Of a DNA stretch of 64,000 bases, positions 21,048 to 62,980 are shown one piece after another. Position numbers and translations under genes: made by a program. The DNA is from Rhodospirillaceae bacterium (GTDB lineage Bacteria > Pseudomonadota > Alphaproteobacteria > UBA6615). The notes beneath the pieces were generated by a model. That model had not been told where the DNA came from and did not search any database. It saw only the letters and a program-made list of their open reading frames with translations. The stretch is taken from NCBI GenBank assembly GCA_018702955.1, contig JABJEK010000097.1, positions 7,631 through 71,630 of the forward strand, written 5' to 3'. Positions within the stretch are counted from its first letter, which is position 1. Each line of letters opens with the position of its first letter.

Positions 21048-22753
<1,706 letters not shown>

Positions 22754-53889: not shown

Positions 53890-54420
53890 ATGACCACGTC
53901 AGACGAGGCGGCCTCCTCCAGTACCGGGGAGGCCGCCTCCGAGCTGCGCACCGTCGACATCAAGTTTGATGCCAGGGCCCGCACCCTCGGAAAGATGAAA
54001 AGCGAGGTGACCATCACCTCGCAATTCTCCAACTTCTCGGTCACGCTGGAGACCGACGAGGGCAAGCTTCACGGCGGCGATGCCTCCGCACCCATGCCGC
54101 TGCACTATTTCGCGGCCGGCGTCGTAACCTGCCTGATGACCCAGATGAAGGCCTTCGCCAAGCGCCTGCGCATCCCGGTCGAGAACATCGAGATGAACGC
54201 CAACTTTCACTGGCGCCTCGAACAGCAGGGGCGCGAGCCCTATGTCTCGCAACCCGTGGGCTTTGACATCGATATCGATGTGGACAGCGATGCGCCGCTG
54301 GAAGACCTGAAGCGCCTGATCGAGGCTGCCAAGAAGGGATGCTTCGCCGAGCAGGCACTCACCCTGCCCTGCGCGATCGGCCACCGCCTGAAGGTCGGCG
54401 AAGACTGGGTCGACGTCTAG
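53890..54420 (+). CDS. OsmC/Ohr family protein
   Basis: 176 aa. Conserved Cys pair (VTCLMTQ...; GCFAEQ) of OsmC-like peroxiredoxins. Confidence 0.7.
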   Translation: MTTSDEAASSSTGEAASELRTVDIKFDARARTLGKMKSEVTITSQFSNFSVTLETDEGKLHGGDASAPMPLHYFAAGVVTCLMTQMKAFAKRLRIPVENIEMNANFHWRLEQQGREPYVSQPVGFDIDIDVDSDAPLEDLKRLIEAAKKGCFAEQALTLPCAIGHRLKVGEDWVDV

Positions 54421-55698: not shown

Positions 55699-56844
55699 TT
55701 AGTGCCTTGCATGCACAAACATAGCGAACCCTAGCGCAACCGCGCTCAGCGCGGCCATGGCATAGAATGCACCGCCGGTGAAACTGCTGTAGAGCGCGCC
55801 GGACGCGATCAGCGCCAGCCCCATGATGATCCCCGATATGGAGGCGTAGGCGCCCTGCGCGGTCGCCTTCAGGCCTTCAGGCGCGTTCCCGGCGATGTAA
55901 TGCATCGTCGCCAGGTAGGTCGCACCGAAGGTGATGGCATGCATCGCCTGGGCCACGATCAGCCCCGGTAGAGCGACCGTCTCGGCCAGAATCAGCCAGC
56001 GCACCAAAGCCGTGCCCGCGCCCAGCAGGAGCAGCCGGGAGGCGCCAAGCCGCGCCACCACTGCACCGCTGAAGGCGAACAGGACGATCTCGACGACGAC
56101 GCTGCCGCCCCAGAGCAGCCCGACCATGAGTTCCGAATGCCCTGCCGCCTTCCAGTGGATGCCGGAGAACCCGTTGAGCACGGCATGGCTCGCCTGCACC
56201 GCACTGGCCGCCAGCACGAAGGCGAGGAAACGCCGGTTGCGGACAAACGCCAGCACATCCGTCCAGCGCGCATGGCCGCGCGCCTCGTTCTGCTCGCGCA
56301 GAAAAACCGTCGTCACCAGCACCGCGACGAGGCCGAAAAATATGACGAGCAGGATCAGATCCGGGTCACGCCCGGTCAGCAGCGCCCCCACCCCCAGAGT
56401 ACCCAGGATAAACGTCACCGAGCCCCACAACCGGATGCGGCCATAGTCCAGCCCGTGGCGGAGCACCGCCGACATGGCCTGGGAATCGCCGAGCGGAATG
56501 AGCGCATGATAACTCGGCGCATAGACGAGGGTGATCAGCAGGATCAGCCAGAAGGACGAGACCAGGGAGAAGCCGGAGAAGGCAATCAGGCTGACGGCCG
56601 CGGTGATGACCAGCATGCGGCGGCCCTGCCCCCCATGGTCGGCCGCGCGGGCGATCACCGGATCCACCAGCACCCGCATCCAGGGACCAACCGCAAGGAT
56701 GATGCCGATATCGCCCGGCGTCAGCCCACGGCTCTGCAGCCAGATCGGCCAGAACGGCACCACCACGCCCAGCACAAAGAAGACCGCGCCATAGAACATG
56801 GCGAAGCGGAGCGAGGTGCGGAACGGGGTCTCAGTCACGGCCAT
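55699..56844 (-). CDS. MFS transporter (HcaT / MFS_1_like type)
   Basis: 12 hydrophobic helices. N-terminus TPFRTSLRFAMFYGAVF resembles phenylpropionate/nucleoside-type MFS permeases. Confidence 0.7.
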   Translation of the reverse strand: MAVTETPFRTSLRFAMFYGAVFFVLGVVVPFWPIWLQSRGLTPGDIGIILAVGPWMRVLVDPVIARAADHGGQGRRMLVITAAVSLIAFSGFSLVSSFWLILLITLVYAPSYHALIPLGDSQAMSAVLRHGLDYGRIRLWGSVTFILGTLGVGALLTGRDPDLILLVIFFGLVAVLVTTVFLREQNEARGHARWTDVLAFVRNRRFLAFVLAASAVQASHAVLNGFSGIHWKAAGHSELMVGLLWGGSVVVEIVLFAFSGAVVARLGASRLLLLGAGTALVRWLILAETVALPGLIVAQAMHAITFGATYLATMHYIAGNAPEGLKATAQGAYASISGIIMGLALIASGALYSSFTGGAFYAMAALSAVALGFAMFVHARH

Positions 56845-56862
56845 TATGTTTGGGACTGCCCA

Positions 56863-56902
56863 TAAAAAACGCCGGCCGCCCACATGGTGTGAACGGCCGG
56901 CG
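56863..56902 (-). terminator. rho-independent terminator downstream of the deiodinase-like gene
   Basis: On the minus strand: cgccggccg-(15 nt)-cggccggcg, followed by TTTTTT. Confidence 0.7.
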
Positions 56903-56938
56903 CGTGATCTGTTTTACCGCAGAAGCGTAGGACGCTGC

Positions 56939-57709
56939 CTATTCGGCGGCTTCCTGTCGGCTGGCAATTTCTTCCTTCGACAGCGGCTGGTTCCGGAACC
57001 GGCCATGCTTCTCGTAATACGCATCGACCTGCACATGCTTGGCGACGGTCAGCGGTGCGGCCTTGAAGAAGTCATAGAGCGCAACAACGCCACCGGTCCA
57101 CATCGTCCGCATCATGTGCGGCATCGAACGCGTGGCCCGAAGTTCGGCGGTCGGTGCATTCTCGACCTTGTGATAGCTCTCGCGATCCTCAAGCGCCGCC
57201 TCGATCAGATGCGGGGCCGCCCAGTTGCAGCGATAGTGGATCGTGCCATCGGGGCGAATGATGTAGACGACGTTCGGCATGGCGCCATAGGCGCGATGGA
57301 AATCGCCGTCGAGACTGTCGACCAGCACCCGACGGAATTCCTTGTAGCGTGGCGCGACCAGTTCGGCGGACTTGAACTTGTCATCCATGTTCTGGTGCGG
57401 ACCCATGCGCTCACCCGGATGGGCCTCGCGGACATAGACCATGACAAAGTTCACGTCGGAGAACTTCTCGACGATGTCCCGGTAGATCTTGATGTTCTTC
57501 GTATACATCGAACAGGTCGACGAACCGGTCTCGATGACGGTCCACTGACCGTCGAAATCCGACAGTTTGACCTCTTCGCGCGTCGCAAGGTCGGTGAATG
57601 TGGCGTCGATATATTTGTCGCCCGCCTGCGGGCCGACAAAGGTGTCGAAGTTGTAATCCACAACGCGGAAACGTTTGTTGTTGTAAACAGGCTTCGGTGC
57701 ATCAGACAT
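56939..57709 (-). CDS. iodothyronine-deiodinase-like thioredoxin-fold protein (Cys variant)
   Basis: ETGSSTCSMY aligns with the deiodinase active site NFGS(C/A)TUPPF, with Cys in place of selenocysteine. FVMVYVREAHPGE aligns with the deiodinase FLLVYIDEAHPSDGW. AGAGGGGG RBS. Confidence 0.65.
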   Translation of the reverse strand: MSDAPKPVYNNKRFRVVDYNFDTFVGPQAGDKYIDATFTDLATREEVKLSDFDGQWTVIETGSSTCSMYTKNIKIYRDIVEKFSDVNFVMVYVREAHPGERMGPHQNMDDKFKSAELVAPRYKEFRRVLVDSLDGDFHRAYGAMPNVVYIIRPDGTIHYRCNWAAPHLIEAALEDRESYHKVENAPTAELRATRSMPHMMRTMWTGGVVALYDFFKAAPLTVAKHVQVDAYYEKHGRFRNQPLSKEEIASRQEAAE

Positions 57710-57868
57710 CGTGGGCCCCCTCTTTGCCTATGAATTAGATTGTTCTTGCTTGTGTGTATGCCACACAATTACGTCCACTATAGCACAAATCAAGCCTCCA
57801 GGCTGCAACTGCGCGACCTGCGAAATTGGTAAAACTGCCGTGATCGGGCGCGATCAGGCGCCAGATTT

Positions 57869-58927
57869 CTAGGCACCGAGTTTCGCGGCCATCCAGTCGG
57901 CCATCAGCGGCCGTGATTTGAACGGAATGTTGTCGCAGACGTGGTTTCCCTCGGGAAACACCACCAGTTCGGCATCGTCACCCGCCTCGTCGATCATCTG
58001 CTGGGATTCCTCGACCGGGCAGATTTCGTCGAGCCCGCTATGGACGATCAGCAGCGGGCACCCAATTCGATCGAGCACACCGTCCAGTGTGTACAGCTTC
58101 GCGGTCTCGGCGGCGTCTTCCACCGTCTCGTCGCCGAACGCGAAACGCAGCGTGTCCTGCACGGCGAATGGCATGCGGTCCCAGAAGCCCGACATGCTGT
58201 GGAACCCGCCGATCGAAACACACGCCTTGATGCGCGGATCGACCGAGGCGCGCGGCGCGGCATAGCCGCCGAAACTGCGGCCCCAGATGCCGATGCGCTC
58301 GCCGTCGATCTCGGGCCGCGCCTCCAGCACATCGATCAGCGCGCCGACAGGCACCTCCCAGTCCGGGCGGATCCGCCATTTGAGCATGGTCAGGCTCTGG
58401 CCCGGCCCGTCATAGGCGCAGGTGGCGACACCCCGCTTGAGAAACTCGTTCTCCAGCGTGTGGAACTCTTCCTTGGTCGAGTCCCCGCCGCAGGTGATCA
58501 TCACGCAGGGCGCGGGCCCGTCGGTATTGGGCACCCGCAGGTTGGCCGGGAAGCTGTCCCCGTCGAACGGAATGTCGATGACCTCGGCCGGGATCGCCAG
58601 ATGGGGCGCGCCCTTGGCATAGGCGGCGCGCTGGCGGCGTTGCATCCGCGCCTTCTCCTCGGCATCCCCGAAGGAGACCGACTGGCCGATATGATAGTAG
58701 AGCGCCGCGCGCACGAACGCCTCGCCCGCCGTCATGGCGCGACCCTCGGCCAACGCCGCGTCGCCAAGCCCCTCATGGGTCTCTGCCAGCCCTTCCCAGA
58801 CGGGCATCCATTCCTCCATCCGGGTGATGGTCCCCAGCACGGTCTGAGCGTCGTTGTAGTCGACCCCGGCGGCCATCAGCCGCGGGAACCTATGTTCGAT
58901 GGTTTCCTGTAGTGCAGCGTCGGCCAT
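57869..58927 (-). CDS. alpha/beta hydrolase (FrsA/DUF1100-like)
   Basis: Internal ATG (MADAALQETIEHRF). GWGRSFGG nucleophile elbow (GxSxG). 352 aa. Confidence 0.7.
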   Translation of the reverse strand: MADAALQETIEHRFPRLMAAGVDYNDAQTVLGTITRMEEWMPVWEGLAETHEGLGDAALAEGRAMTAGEAFVRAALYYHIGQSVSFGDAEEKARMQRRQRAAYAKGAPHLAIPAEVIDIPFDGDSFPANLRVPNTDGPAPCVMITCGGDSTKEEFHTLENEFLKRGVATCAYDGPGQSLTMLKWRIRPDWEVPVGALIDVLEARPEIDGERIGIWGRSFGGYAAPRASVDPRIKACVSIGGFHSMSGFWDRMPFAVQDTLRFAFGDETVEDAAETAKLYTLDGVLDRIGCPLLIVHSGLDEICPVEESQQMIDEAGDDAELVVFPEGNHVCDNIPFKSRPLMADWMAAKLGA

Positions 58928-58952: not shown

Positions 58953-59657
58953 TCAGTCGAGATGTTTGTGGAAAAAGTCGATGGACAGGGCGAGCGCCCT
59001 GGTCGCCTCGGGTTCGCTGTAGGTCGTGCCGCCGTGGCGCGCGAACGCGTGATCGGCGCCGGGATATTTGTGGATCTCGACCAGCGGGTTGGGTGACAGC
59101 CGCCGTTCAATCATCGCGCAGACCTCCGGCTGGACCCATTTGTCGGCCAGCGCCTGATGCAGCATGAAGGGCTTCGACAGGTTCGGCGCTTCCTTGATCG
59201 AATGCTCGATATAGGTGCCGTAATAGGCGACCGCGCAGTCAATGTCGGAGCGGCAGCACATCAGGTAGCCCATCTTGCCGCCGAGGCAGTAGCCGACAGT
59301 GCCGACCTTGCCGTTGCCGCCCTCGATGCTGCGCAGATAGCTCGCGGTGTCCTCCATATCCTGGACACCCAATTCGTAATCAAAGTCGTAATAGAGATCG
59401 ATCGCCTTGGCCCAGTGGTCCCGGTTGCCGTCGGACAGCTCGACCCCCGGCTCCAGCCGCCAGAACAGATCGGGCACGAGGGTGATCCAGCCCGCTTTCG
59501 CGAACTCCTGCGCGTGCTCGCGCATGGTGTCGTTGACGCCCCAGATTTCCATGATCGCGATGATCGCACCGACCGGTGCCTTGTCCGGATAGGCGACATG
59601 GGCGCCCATCATGGCGCCGTCGCGCAGCGGCACCTGGATATCTTCGATTCGTGCCAT
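58953..59657 (-). CDS. dienelactone hydrolase family protein
   Basis: GYCLGGKMG nucleophile-Cys elbow and the C-terminal His region of the dienelactone hydrolase family. 234 aa. Confidence 0.8.
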   Translation of the reverse strand: MARIEDIQVPLRDGAMMGAHVAYPDKAPVGAIIAIMEIWGVNDTMREHAQEFAKAGWITLVPDLFWRLEPGVELSDGNRDHWAKAIDLYYDFDYELGVQDMEDTASYLRSIEGGNGKVGTVGYCLGGKMGYLMCCRSDIDCAVAYYGTYIEHSIKEAPNLSKPFMLHQALADKWVQPEVCAMIERRLSPNPLVEIHKYPGADHAFARHGGTTYSEPEATRALALSIDFFHKHLD

Positions 59658-59670
59658 TTCGGTTCTCCTT

Positions 59671-62028
59671 CTAGTCCTGAAGCGCGGCCCAGACGCGCGC
59701 CGGTGTCATCGGCAGGTCGATCGGCTCCTTCCCGGCACTTGCCAGCGCGTCGGCAACCGCCGCCATGCCCGAGGGCAACGCACCCGCGACGCCGGATTCA
59801 CCCGCGCCCTTGGCGCCGAGCGGGTTCGTCGTCGCCGGCACCGAATGGTGGCCAACATCGAGAGCCGGCAAATCATCGGCCCGCGGCATCATGTAATCCA
59901 TGAACGAGCCGGTCACGAGTTGGCCGTCCGCGTCATAGACGACACATTCCCCCAGCACCTGGCCCAATCCCTGGGCGATACCGCCATGGATTTGACCCTC
60001 GACCACCATCTCGTCGAACACGTTCCCCACATCGTCGACCGCCGCATAGCGCGCGACAGCGACCGTTCCAGTTTCGGGATCTATCTCGACCTCACAGATG
60101 TGACAGCCGTTGGGGAAGGTCATCTGGGGGGATTCGAACTTCTCCGTCGCGTCCAGGCCGCCTGTAAACTCTTCCGGCAACGCCAGCGTCGAAATCCGGT
60201 CCGCCAGTTCGATGATGCCGATTTGCCGGTCGGTCCCCTTGATCCGAAACGCACCGGCATGGAATTCGACATCGTCGACGGCCGCCTCAAGCACATGCCC
60301 CGCCAGCGCGCGACCCTTCTCGATCGCGGTGTCGCAGGACACGGCCATGGCGCTGCCCGCCATCATCATCGAGCGCGACGCGACTGACGGCGTACCCGGC
60401 GGCGCTTCGAGGCTGTCCCCCTCGATCAGCCGCACCTTCGACGGCGGGATTCCCAGCCGGTCGCCGATCAGCCGTGTGTAGGTCGACAGGTGGCTCTGCC
60501 CCATGGCCTGCACCCCAAGCCGCACGGTCGCATAGCCGTCGCCCTCGAAACGCAGGTCGGCGGTCTCCTCGAGGATTCCGCCGGCGACTTCGAGGAAGCA
60601 GGCAATCCCGATTCCGCGCAGCCTGCCGTCTTTCTCGGATGCCGCACGGCGTGACGGAAACCCGTCCCAGTCGGCCAGCGCCAGCGCCTTGTCGAGGCAG
60701 GCCTCGAACTCGCCGGAATCATAGATCGGCCCGTTCGGCGTTGTGTAGGGCATCGCCGACGGGGCGATAAGGTTACGCCGGCGAATCTCGACCCGGTCGA
60801 TGCCCATTTCGGACGCCGCCCGGTCGAGCAATTGCTCGATCGCGATGATCGCCTCGGGCCGCCCCGCGCCGCGATAGGGGCCCAGCGGCGCCGTATTTGT
60901 CAGGGTCATAGTCACGTCGATATGGATCGCCGGAATCGTGTAAACGCTGGCCAGGCAATTCTTGGTGTTGTTGGTCGCGAACACCGCAGAGAAGGTGGTC
61001 AGGTAAGCCCCCATCCCGACCCGGTTGCGGACCCGCAGCCCCTGAATCACGCCGTCCCCGTCGAGCGCCATTTCGGCCGCGATCAGGGTGTCGCGTCCCG
61101 CCGTGTCAGCGAGAAAGCTCTCCAGCCGCGTGTTGCACCATTTAACCGGCCGACCAACCTGACGCGCCGCTAACAGGATCGCAGCATATTCGGGATAGGG
61201 ATGGGCCTTCATGCCGAAGCCGCCGCCGACATCATGGGTCAGCACCCGCAACTGATCGGGTTCCACGCCGAACACCTGGGCGGCGAACATCTTCGACACC
61301 AGCCCAACCCCCTGGGTCGGCGCGGTCAGCGTGTAACGGCCGAGCGCCTCGTCCCATTCGCCGATGCCGCCGCGCGGTTCCATGGAGACCGGCGCGAGGC
61401 GTGTGTCAAGCAACTCCACCCGCGAGATATGCGCCGCCTCGTCGAACGCCGAAGCCACCGCGCTTTCGTCCCCGTCCACCCACTCGAAGGCGACGTTGCC
61501 GGGCGCGCTGTCCCAAACCTGCGCCGCCCCATCGGCAAGCGCCTCCGCCACGCCGGGAACCGCCGGCAGGCTTTCTATATCGAGGATCACCGCTTCGGCC
61601 GCGTCCGCAGCCCGGACCGGCGTGTCGGCAACGACGAGCGCCACCGCCTCGCCCGCATGGCGGACCTTCTCATACGCAAGCACCGGCTTGGGTGCCGACG
61701 CCATCGTCATGCCGTCTCTACCCGGAAAACTGATCGCCGGCGGGATATCGCCCAGGCCCGCGGCCTTCACGTCTGCACCGGTGATCACCGCCAGGACGCC
61801 GGGCATCACCAGCGCCGCCGCCACGTCGACGCCGCGCAGGACGCCATGAGCGACCGGCGACCGCACGAACGCGCCGTAGGCCTGCCCCGCCAAATTAATA
61901 TCGTCGGTGAAGCGTCCCGCCCCGGTCAGGAGCGGGAGGTCCTCGCTGCGCAGCGTGTCGCCGTCGCTGCCGTAGCGCGCGGTGATTTCGTTCACGGCTT
62001 TTGTCTCCTCGACCATCCGCCCCGGCAT
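59671..62028 (-). CDS. molybdopterin-dependent hydroxylase large subunit (CoxL/XDH family, form-II-like), paralog 2
   Basis: 785 aa. GPYRGAGRPEA active-site loop. VGGGFGMKA molybdenum-cofactor motif. About 35-40% identical by eye to the gene at 16680-19007. Confidence 0.85.
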   Translation of the reverse strand: MPGRMVEETKAVNEITARYGSDGDTLRSEDLPLLTGAGRFTDDINLAGQAYGAFVRSPVAHGVLRGVDVAAALVMPGVLAVITGADVKAAGLGDIPPAISFPGRDGMTMASAPKPVLAYEKVRHAGEAVALVVADTPVRAADAAEAVILDIESLPAVPGVAEALADGAAQVWDSAPGNVAFEWVDGDESAVASAFDEAAHISRVELLDTRLAPVSMEPRGGIGEWDEALGRYTLTAPTQGVGLVSKMFAAQVFGVEPDQLRVLTHDVGGGFGMKAHPYPEYAAILLAARQVGRPVKWCNTRLESFLADTAGRDTLIAAEMALDGDGVIQGLRVRNRVGMGAYLTTFSAVFATNNTKNCLASVYTIPAIHIDVTMTLTNTAPLGPYRGAGRPEAIIAIEQLLDRAASEMGIDRVEIRRRNLIAPSAMPYTTPNGPIYDSGEFEACLDKALALADWDGFPSRRAASEKDGRLRGIGIACFLEVAGGILEETADLRFEGDGYATVRLGVQAMGQSHLSTYTRLIGDRLGIPPSKVRLIEGDSLEAPPGTPSVASRSMMMAGSAMAVSCDTAIEKGRALAGHVLEAAVDDVEFHAGAFRIKGTDRQIGIIELADRISTLALPEEFTGGLDATEKFESPQMTFPNGCHICEVEIDPETGTVAVARYAAVDDVGNVFDEMVVEGQIHGGIAQGLGQVLGECVVYDADGQLVTGSFMDYMMPRADDLPALDVGHHSVPATTNPLGAKGAGESGVAGALPSGMAAVADALASAGKEPIDLPMTPARVWAALQD

Positions 62029-62095: not shown

Positions 62096-62980
62096 CTAGA
62101 AGCGGTAGAACGCTTCCGAGTTCTCCACCATGATCTTGCGGCGCATGTCCTCGTCGGGTACCCACTGGCCGAAGGCCTCGACCGGATCGGCGTCGTTCGG
62201 GTTGACCTCATACTTGTTCGGATGGGGCCAGTCCGTGCCCCAGATCACGCGGTCGGCGTTCGCCTCGATGAGCGCACGGGCCATCGGCTGACAATCGTCA
62301 TACGGCGGCAGATCGGTCGCGCTGACGCGGTTGGCACCGGAGATCTTGATCCAGGTGTTGCCGTCGCGGACCAGCTTCAGCAGGGCCTGGAAGCCAGGCG
62401 CCTCGATGCCGGCGGTCGCCGGCTGATAGGCGAAATGGCCGATCGTCATAGGCGTCGTCATCTTCTCAAACACCGGCATCAGGCCGACGATGTCCTTGCC
62501 CGGGAACAGCCACTCAATGTGCCAGTCGAACGGCTTGATGCGCGCCTCCAACTCGGGGATCGCGTCGAGATCGAGCGGCATGCCGCCCTTGTTGTCGATG
62601 TTCAGGCGCACGCCGCGGATACCCTGGTCGCTCAGCTCCTGCAGCTGGGCATCGGTGAAGTCCATGGTCATGGCGCACACGCCACGAGCCCGGTTGGGGG
62701 TCTCGGCATTCAGCGTGTTCATGCCATCGAGGATGGCCGAATTGTCCGTGCCGTAGACCGACGGCTGGGTGAACACGACCCGGTCGATGCCCAGGGTCGC
62801 GTGCAGATGCTTGAGATCATCGAGCGTCGAGACCGGCGGGTTGTAGCCACGGTCGGGCGACAGCGGATAGCGGTCCTCGAACACATGCACATGGGTGTCG
62901 ATCGTGCCCTTGGGCAGGGTGATGTTCGGCTTGCGCGGGTTACGGTCGGGCGCAATGCAATCTCTGATGTCGCTGTTCAC
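62096..62980 (-). CDS. amidohydrolase-2 family protein (LigI-type lactonase-like)
   Basis: IDTHVHVF metal site near the N-terminus. WGTDWPHP C-terminal motif typical of the 2-pyrone-4,6-dicarboxylate lactonase branch. Confidence 0.7.
   Translation of the reverse strand: MNSDIRDCIAPDRNPRKPNITLPKGTIDTHVHVFEDRYPLSPDRGYNPPVSTLDDLKHLHATLGIDRVVFTQPSVYGTDNSAILDGMNTLNAETPNRARGVCAMTMDFTDAQLQELSDQGIRGVRLNIDNKGGMPLDLDAIPELEARIKPFDWHIEWLFPGKDIVGLMPVFEKMTTPMTIGHFAYQPATAGIEAPGFQALLKLVRDGNTWIKISGANRVSATDLPPYDDCQPMARALIEANADRVIWGTDWPHPNKYEVNPNDADPVEAFGQWVPDEDMRRKIMVENSEAFYRF

Follow-up and report, generated by a model that had tools for sequence, protein, structure and literature searches.

A bacterial deiodinase-like protein with cysteine at the catalytic position

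What does a protein resembling the vertebrate iodothyronine deiodinases do in a bacterium, and does it belong to their family? The question is raised by a gene in a 64,000-nt stretch of the genome of a Rhodospirillaceae bacterium (contig JABJEK010000097.1, positions 7,631 to 71,630), the whole of which is called the window here and numbered from its first letter. From the sequence alone, the original prediction had described the product as an iodothyronine-deiodinase-like protein with Cys at the selenocysteine (Sec) position, encoded by a stand-alone gene. The parts of the gene that matter for the argument are the following.

56939 to 57709 (stop codon included), minus strand: coding sequence of the 256-residue deiodinase-like protein, based on the open reading frame (ORF) list, the sequence, the PF00837 score, 347 homologues and a G+C content at third codon positions (GC3) of 0.76
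57512 to 57514, minus strand: TGT codon of Cys66, at the catalytic selenocysteine position of deiodinases, based on alignment to the Sec-to-Cys residue of the Dio2 and Dio3 crystal constructs and on invariance
57410 to 57427, minus strand: codons of E95-A-H97-P-G-E100, containing the EAHP motif common with deiodinases (Glu160 and His162 of Dio2), based on alignments and invariance, with the relay role taken from PMC11592359
57227 to 57229, minus strand: TGC codon of Cys161, which lies where strand beta4 ends; it is the sole cysteine besides Cys66 and may be the resolving one, based on conservation and AlphaFold2 secondary structure
56942 to 57217, minus strand: codons of residues 165-256, comprising the last helix of the thioredoxin fold and a conserved helical C-terminal extension not present in animal deiodinases

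Family membership and the catalytic site

The top Pfam match of the protein was PF00837 (T4_deiodinase), with 50.3 bits against a cutoff of 27 (E 2.6e-13) over residues 56-161, the profile being matched only over positions 104-217 of 237. AhpC-TSA (PF00578) reached 26.4 bits against a cutoff of 26, 24 bits under PF00837 on the same region, and the glutathione peroxidase family GSHPx (PF00255) was insignificant (12.5 bits against a cutoff of 27, E 0.11). Since PF00837 scored best, the outcome that the original prediction had named as speaking against it, a better match to another thioredoxin-fold family, did not occur. A PF00837 match was also precomputed in virtually all of the 120 relatives listed, the exception being a 149-aa fragment. 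The NCBIfam model NF038285 (deiodinase_rel) aligned residues 25-161 with its positions 174-324 of 347, and with 53.3 bits against a cutoff of 250 this match, confined to the catalytic domain, points to a different subfamily.

Structural comparisons led to the same family. A search of PDB sequences with the single protein found Dio2 (6e-9) and Dio3 (4e-6), and the profile of a 79-member family found Dio2 at 2.3e-11 and Dio3 at 2e-10, the next match being a thioredoxin-family protein at 7.5e-5. An AlphaFold2 model built on an alignment of 79 relatives (pLDDT 84.6, pTM 0.84) was compared with known structures by Foldseek, which returned Dio2 first (2e-10) and Dio3 next (1e-9); a structural comparison with Dio3 had been proposed in the original prediction. 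The protein has a thioredoxin fold with the N-terminal peroxiredoxin-like two-strand module. It is therefore practically certain that it belongs to the iodothyronine deiodinase family PF00837, in its bacterial deiodinase-like branch.

The alignment to vertebrate deiodinases that had been drawn by eye was reproduced by HMMER in both of its motifs. Residues 57-69, TVIETGSSTCSMY, align with LVVNFGSATCPPF of the mouse Dio2 Sec-to-Cys crystal construct, FVMVYVREAHPGE aligns with FLLVYIDEAHPSD, and the intervening helix YRDIVEKF is paired with FRQLVEEF of Dio2. Between the two motifs the distance differs only by a single one-residue indel, the extra residue being in Dio2 and Dio3. In the first motif, S63-S64-T65-C66-S67-M68-Y69 aligns with S-A-T-C(U)-P-P-F, giving a common pattern S-x-T-[U/C]-x-x-aromatic in which the +3 residue (Tyr69 here, and either Tyr or Phe across the wider family) is the counterpart of the Phe in T-U-P-P-F. 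Cys66 was invariant in all 79 relatives.

In Dio2 the proton relay around Sec130 comprises Ser127, Thr129, Tyr157, Glu160, His162 and His182 (PMC11592359). The counterparts in the window protein are Ser63, Thr65, Tyr92, Glu95, His97 and His105, all of them invariant in the 79 relatives, which are 56-90% identical. As judged from these alignments, the deiodinase-type catalytic constellation is retained complete and invariant. The most conserved motif of the family, YVREAHPGE, contains part of this relay; it is a deiodinase-specific motif that does not characterise peroxiredoxins. The second cysteine, Cys161, was found in 69 of the 79 relatives (87%), being replaced by Ser, Ala, Thr or Val in the others, and in 78 of 81 genomic hits.

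The original prediction had left room for orthologues with an in-frame TGA and a Sec insertion sequence (SECIS) element. In this clade only Cys codons were found. The codon at the catalytic position of the window gene is TGT; the 81 hits in 80 loci of species-representative genomes all carry Cys and none has an in-frame stop, and in 80 metagenomic loci holding more distant relatives every readable active site was TC[SPAM]M[YF] or TCSQY, the unreadable ones being one frameshifted locus, one in which the anchor motif is missing and a few that run off the end of their contig. No in-frame TGA was thus seen among approximately 165 relatives, in genome and metagenome scans that were not designed to reach the UxxC Sec branch. 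Four family representatives (P0156, P0234, P0241, P0270), which start exactly at a Met two residues past the catalytic position, had been suspected of being Sec genes split at an in-frame TGA. Three of them proved to be Cys forms with a miscalled start or a broken frame, since T-C-P-M-F, T-C-P-M-Y and S-C-P-M-Y could be read in frame before the called start; in the fourth the contig ends too early. Bacterial Sec-type deiodinase-like proteins with bacterial SECIS elements do exist, with four in the Sargasso Sea set (PMC1088965) and 22 Sec beside 21 Cys forms in the Global Ocean Sampling set (PMC2398784), and reviews list the bacterial Sec forms with a UxxC motif (PMC13188914, PMC9312934). The wider family studied here has the active-site motif T-C-x-x-[YF], as in the animal T-U-P-P-F, and no UxxC-type second Cys. 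Because they are catalogued with the UxxC motif, the Sec forms evidently belong to another branch.

Downstream of the catalytic domain, residues 175-256 form a helical extension, put at approximately 90 residues in all, with helices at 192-205, 208-235 and 245-255 in the AlphaFold2 model. It contains many invariant residues, and neither a Pfam family nor a PDB match was aligned to it; His, Glu and Asp residues are likewise invariant at many positions beyond the thioredoxin core. Among the best 150 representatives of a library-wide profile search, most of the full-length ones align through profile position approximately 225-240. By these alignments the extension is a hallmark of the bacterial clade.

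The protein is soluble and cytoplasmic, with a mass of about 29 kDa. Its highest 19-residue Kyte-Doolittle mean is 1.08, at residues 205-223, and as no window exceeds this value we found no signal peptide or membrane helix in it, in agreement with what had been said earlier of its N-terminus. The reading frame runs from an ATG to a TAG stop codon with a GC3 typical of coding frames. A long ORF on the opposite strand (56798-57733) was discarded as an antisense artefact that appears in relatives only as a shadow of the conserved gene. Recent foreign origin was also considered, given a coding-sequence G+C content of 58% against approximately 66% in most neighbours, yet there was no clear sign of it in view of the GC3 and of a G+C content that tracks the host genome in relatives.

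Candidate chemistries and substrates

We tentatively propose that the protein carries out a thiol-dependent reductive elimination of deiodinase type, that is dehalogenase-type chemistry, on a substrate other than a thyronine, a reading that we rank first and regard as a serious possibility somewhat short of an even chance. In this mechanism Cys66, whose thiolate sits at the N-terminal end of helix alpha1 in the thioredoxin/peroxiredoxin-type fold, would attack a small substrate at an electrophilic atom. This atom would most likely be a ring halogen, the ring being aromatic or heteroaromatic, and it would be abstracted formally as X+ as in deiodinases. The relay Ser63-Thr65-Tyr92-Glu95-His97-His105 would hand a proton to the leaving carbon. 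Cys66, left as a sulfenyl halide or sulfenic acid, would then be resolved by Cys161 where present, or else by an external thiol, for instance glutathione or thioredoxin. This type of mechanism is favoured because the relay constellation is invariant, the hallmarks of peroxiredoxins are absent and a natural Cys-deiodinase is active: as recounted in PMC8143656, the Cys-type deiodinase of amphioxus is competent, has a nanomolar Km and deiodinates thyroacetic acids (Klootwijk et al., 2011). On this account, family members with Cys are capable of efficient reductive dehalogenation. The family is also marine, in a habitat rich in iodinated and brominated organics, and the make-up of its gene neighbourhoods, with an FrsA-like hydrolase recurring in a second major clade, is in line with the proposal.

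Several observations weigh against this proposal. Sec-to-Cys mutants of mammalian deiodinases are much poorer catalysts, and the AhpC-TSA match of the window protein, borderline as it is, passes its cutoff. In the neighbourhoods, an all-against-all clustering of neighbouring genes gave no universal partner gene, the largest cluster covering 24 of 81 genomic and 10 of 80 metagenomic loci, and no consistently linked halogen-related gene. Our literature search found no experimental study of any bacterial deiodinase-like protein, in keeping with the earlier description of these proteins as essentially uncharacterised, and the discoverers of the family proposed only a generic redox function (PMC1088965). 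The substrate site itself also departs from the animal one. The thyronine site of deiodinases includes the gating Phe224/258, Glu225-Arg226 of Dio2 and Lys241, with Arg275 in Dio3, and a deiodinase-specific insertion with an extended omega-loop, loop-D (Dio2 residues 161-188), borders the catalytic centre (PMC11592359). In the profile alignment Phe224-Glu225-Arg226 became Pro145-Asn146-Val147, and by ungapped extension of the alignment the Lys241/Arg275 position would fall at about Trp163. The two relay histidines are separated by 7 residues as against 19 in Dio2, within an insertion that keeps its conserved edges (EAHPGE and H105) and has no strand in the model, so that loop-D is shorter by 12 residues. 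The positions of the proximal and distal Cys are taken by Ser64 and Arg126, respectively (counterparts of Dio3 Cys168 and Cys239, and of Dio2 Cys205). Together, the shortened loop-D and the C-terminal helices peculiar to this family probably make for a binding site unlike the animal one.

A peroxiredoxin-like thiol peroxidase, or a generic thiol-disulfide oxidoreductase, is a possible but rather doubtful alternative, in which Cys66 would be the peroxidatic or redox-active residue and Cys161 the resolving one, thioredoxin or glutathione would act as reductant, and the relay would be ancestral and reused for peroxide or sulfenate chemistry. It draws on the AhpC-TSA score just mentioned and on the many relatives with precomputed AhpC-TSA or Redoxin matches, some of which are named 'peroxiredoxin' or 'redoxin domain-containing protein', and it would suit the redox function suggested by the discoverers. 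The catalytic core of deiodinases is itself a thioredoxin fold with an N-terminal peroxiredoxin-like strand pair, for which a peroxiredoxin-like recycling scheme with a proximal and a distal Cys has been described (PMC11592359). An OsmC-like gene lies 1.2 kb downstream in the clade of the window, and OsmC-related ORFs stand 11-122 nt from the deiodinase-like genes of three distant relatives (L121, L131, L133). Against this, PF00837 outscores AhpC-TSA by 24 bits, the YVREAHPGE motif is specific to deiodinases, and Cys161 is dispensable, 13% of relatives being without it. The PxxxTxxC motif of peroxiredoxins is absent, position -7 being Ile59 here and Ile, Val, Leu or Phe, never Pro, in a 19-sequence alignment, with Ser63 at -3; the protein likewise has no CxxC motif and no export or membrane anchoring, which are the hallmarks of TlpA/ResA/DsbE. 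In peroxiredoxins the catalytic Arg reportedly replaces the cis-Pro of thioredoxins, and the invariant Pro145 of the window protein, a thioredoxin-type cis-Pro, stands at what we take to be the position of this Arg. Among the neighbours, which are hydrolases, lactonase-type amidohydrolases, SDRs, Mo-hydroxylase subunits and transporters, there was no thioredoxin reductase or AhpF-type partner.

It is less probable, and on balance unlikely, that the target of the protein is a reactive halogen or chalcogen species, inorganic or bound to protein, and not a carbon-halogen bond (for example by reduction of HOI or HOBr adducts, haloamines, S- or Se-adducts), or that it is a redox sensor or chaperone whose C-terminal extension binds a partner. 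Deiodinase chemistry proceeds via an Se-I or S-I intermediate (PMC11592359), which is also the product of a thiol with HOI. The marine habitat would fit such a role, as would the large conserved C-terminal extension, which is without a known counterpart, the invariant His, Glu and Asp residues outside the thioredoxin core, and the fusions to S-adenosylmethionine (SAM) methyltransferase and HD domains in the wider family. Direct support was not obtained: the methyltransferase fusion involves a generic class I domain, and there is no conserved partner gene in the clustering. Met68, adjacent to Cys66, varies across the wider family, and this speaks against a metal site made up of Cys and Met.

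A genuine iodothyronine or iodotyrosine deiodinase acting on thyronine-like compounds would agree with PF00837 membership, with the complete relay and with the action of the amphioxus Cys enzyme on thyroacetic acids as recounted in PMC8143656, but is highly improbable, as the amino-carboxylate-binding Glu-Arg, the Lys/Arg after beta4 and the gating Phe are all replaced, loop-D is truncated, and thyroid hormones are not expected in such organisms according to the 2005 study (PMC1088965). By its predicted binding site, the substrate is very probably not a thyronine, nor the protein a thyroid-hormone deiodinase.

A more specific form of the proposed deiodinase-type chemistry is speculative, and we consider it improbable as it stands: the clade would be a cofactor-free, Cys-based reductive dehalogenase of aerobic marine Alphaproteobacteria, a prokaryotic equivalent of the thyroid-hormone deiodinases, removing iodine or bromine from natural halogenated aromatics and working with the hydrolases and Mo-hydroxylase that repeatedly neighbour it. 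If the protein is a dehalogenase, a thiol-only enzyme class would be added to bacterial organohalogen metabolism, and if it is a cofactor-free one of the kind just described, the marine cycles of iodine and bromine would gain an enzymatic route that is new, and deiodinase chemistry a soluble, easily expressed model. Should it prove no more than a redox protein of the peroxidase type, it would rank among the ordinary members of the thioredoxin-fold superfamily.

Expression signals, neighbourhood and distribution

The signals around the gene are listed below.

57777 to 57785, minus strand: extended -10-like element TGCTATAGT, with the relatives' consensus TGCTATAAT, based on the alignment of 13 upstream regions; a putative promoter element
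57750 to 57768, minus strand: inverted repeat TTGTGTG-GCATA-CACACAA, just downstream of the -10-like element and in register in 13 relatives
57716 to 57723, minus strand: Shine-Dalgarno sequence AGAGGGGG, 6 nt ahead of the ATG, read from the sequence and kept as AGAGGAGG or AGGGGG in relatives
56864 to 56903, minus strand: intrinsic terminator with a 16-bp G+C-rich stem (stem 56903-56869), a 3-nt loop and a T6 run, based on a terminator scan and the sequence

The upstream spacer (57710-57868, 159 nt) had been called AT-richer, and indeed it has a G+C content of 51.6% against 62.8% in the window, at the 1.2th percentile of all 159-nt windows. A consensus sigma-70 scan of this region gave no full -35/-10 pair. 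In the inverted repeat 76.9% of cells were paired, compared to 12-58% with a slid partner, the covariation score was reached by 3 of 500 shuffles, and the arms co-vary in relatives, for example as GTGCG/CGCAC. The repeat would form a hairpin in the 5' leader RNA or else serve as an operator for a repressor that covers the transcription start.

The conserved -10-like element, the inverted repeat, the Shine-Dalgarno sequence and the terminator together support a promoter of its own for the gene, and the clean terminator reported earlier at 56863-56902 was found with its stem and T6 run. The claim of a monocistronic unit was upheld only in part. The -10-like element and the terminator after the gene speak for it and a monocistronic unit is plausible; however, the terminator scan found none between the upstream hydrolase gene and the deiodinase-like gene, the order of the two is conserved and the gap shrinks to 30-52 nt in two relatives (L016, L026), so that co-transcription with the hydrolase may also occur. 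Downstream, the listed GTG start of the permease gene falls inside the terminator stem, while the ATG at 56844 leaves approximately 20 nt after the T-run. With so little space, the permease gene may need read-through or a promoter inside the upstream gene.

The neighbouring genes, for which an alpha/beta-hydrolase operon and an MFS permease had been correctly described, are as follows.

62096 to 62980, minus strand: Amidohydro_2 (lactonase-type) gene
59671 to 62028, minus strand: gene of a molybdopterin-binding large subunit of CoxL/xanthine-dehydrogenase type
58953 to 59657, minus strand: dienelactone hydrolase (DLH) gene
57869 to 58927: FrsA-like alpha/beta-hydrolase gene, directly upstream of the deiodinase-like gene
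start at 56844 (plausible ATG, MAVTETPF...) or 56883 (listed GTG), minus strand: MFS_1_like permease gene, downstream of the deiodinase-like gene
53890 to 54420, plus strand: OsmC-like (peroxidase-family) gene

The CoxL-type gene has no adjacent ORFs for a small (2Fe-2S) or medium (FAD) subunit. The order Amidohydro_2, CoxL-type, DLH, FrsA-like, deiodinase-like, MFS was found only in the approximately 16 closest loci. In other subclades the neighbours are an MsbA-like ABC exporter, an SDR with an aldo-keto reductase and FAH, LysR with a TRAP transporter, or an IlvD/Edd-type dehydratase. An FrsA-like hydrolase is found directly upstream on the same strand also in the second major clade (5 of 11 loci) and in L150, with 25-29% identity to the hydrolase of the window, and a CoxL-like gene directly adjoins the deiodinase-like gene in L077-L079 and in L144. 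A gene that has its own promoter-like element and terminator, yet is kept behind an FrsA-like hydrolase, fits a role in small-molecule catabolism or detoxification, and the context as a whole hints, faintly, at small-molecule catabolism rather than at a dedicated peroxide-defence operon. On one short contig, that of P0156, the deiodinase-like gene (L161, 622-1371) is convergent with a DUF190 gene and crcB, a fluoride channel gene, a single case that may be coincidence.

At E<=1e-3 the library-wide profile search collected 2078 cluster representatives, and at E<=1e-30 it retained 138. The closest relative of the window protein is 93% identical, and some homologues are named 'deiodinase-like protein' at NCBI. 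Nearly all of the named genomes are uncultured marine Alphaproteobacteria (metagenome-assembled genomes, MAGs, of Rhodospirillales and Rhodospirillaceae from Tara, ALOHA and the Red Sea), the exceptions being a few Gammaproteobacteria, Hyphomicrobiales and one Polyangiaceae MAG. Two paralogues per genome are common among Rhodospirillales MAGs, with 53-57% and 65-67% identity to the window protein; pairs within one MAG are L030 with L060, L040 with L061 and L028 with L069, and tandem copies stand on the contigs L126, L137 and L157. Fusions in the wider family join the domain to a class I SAM methyltransferase, to an HD_4 domain and, in two cases, to long uncharacterised N-terminal regions (P0152, P0264, P0238, P0243). 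The methyltransferase fusion P0152 was considered as a link to halide methylation, since TPMT passes its cutoff with 34.9 bits, but generic methyltransferase models scored higher and the NCBIfam assignment was non-specific, and the link was dropped.

Elsewhere in the window, the only Rfam match was RF02514 ('5_ureB_sRNA') at 22312-22601 on the plus strand, with 85.1 bits against a gathering cutoff of 40 (E 1.4e-20), which implies a urease gene cluster there.

Relation to known systems

Bacterial Sec and Cys deiodinase-like proteins were first reported in 2005 from the Sargasso Sea (Zhang, Fomenko and Gladyshev, PMC1088965). As the family has been known since then, is in Pfam and appears in NCBI names, the window gene is a further member and not a new family. 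For specialists this is unsurprising, but the protein offers a convenient selenium-free entry to the functional question: small, soluble and free of selenium, it would not call for Sec machinery when expressed in E. coli, which makes it practical for testing the relay residues, and it may serve as a test object for whether deiodinase-type carbon-halogen reduction predated animals. In the literature that we searched we did not find described the full conservation of the predicted relay, the monothiol T-C-x-x-[YF] motif, the C-terminal extension or the recurrent adjacency to a hydrolase.

With the marine-metagenome proteins (PMC1088965, PMC2398784) the window protein has in common PF00837 and a marine bacterial origin, and Cys as in their Cys homologues; the Sec forms among them carry UxxC (PMC13188914, PMC9312934), whereas the window protein has C-S-M-Y, without a second Cys in the motif. 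The 'deiodinase family protein' NF038285 is likewise bacterial and aligns in the catalytic domain, but has approximately 170 extra N-terminal residues and lacks the C-terminal extension of the window protein. From the peroxiredoxins (AhpC/TSA, Bcp, Tpx) and from TlpA/ResA/DsbE it differs by having neither CxxC, PxxxTxxC, the peroxiredoxin Arg nor an export signal, and by possessing the EAHP relay. The amphioxus Cys-deiodinase, likened here by its description in PMC8143656 only, is also a natural non-seleno form with a catalytic Cys, but it is an animal enzyme with iodothyroacetic acids as substrates. Compared to the vertebrate Dio1-3 (4TR3/4TR4, 9H48), the window protein has the same thioredoxin fold and peroxiredoxin-like strand pair, catalytic position, relay, +3 aromatic residue and EAHP motif, while it differs by Cys in place of Sec, a soluble form without anchor, a loop-D shorter by 12 residues, Pro-Asn-Val in the substrate site, Arg126 and Ser64 at the distal and proximal Cys positions, and a helical C-terminal extension.

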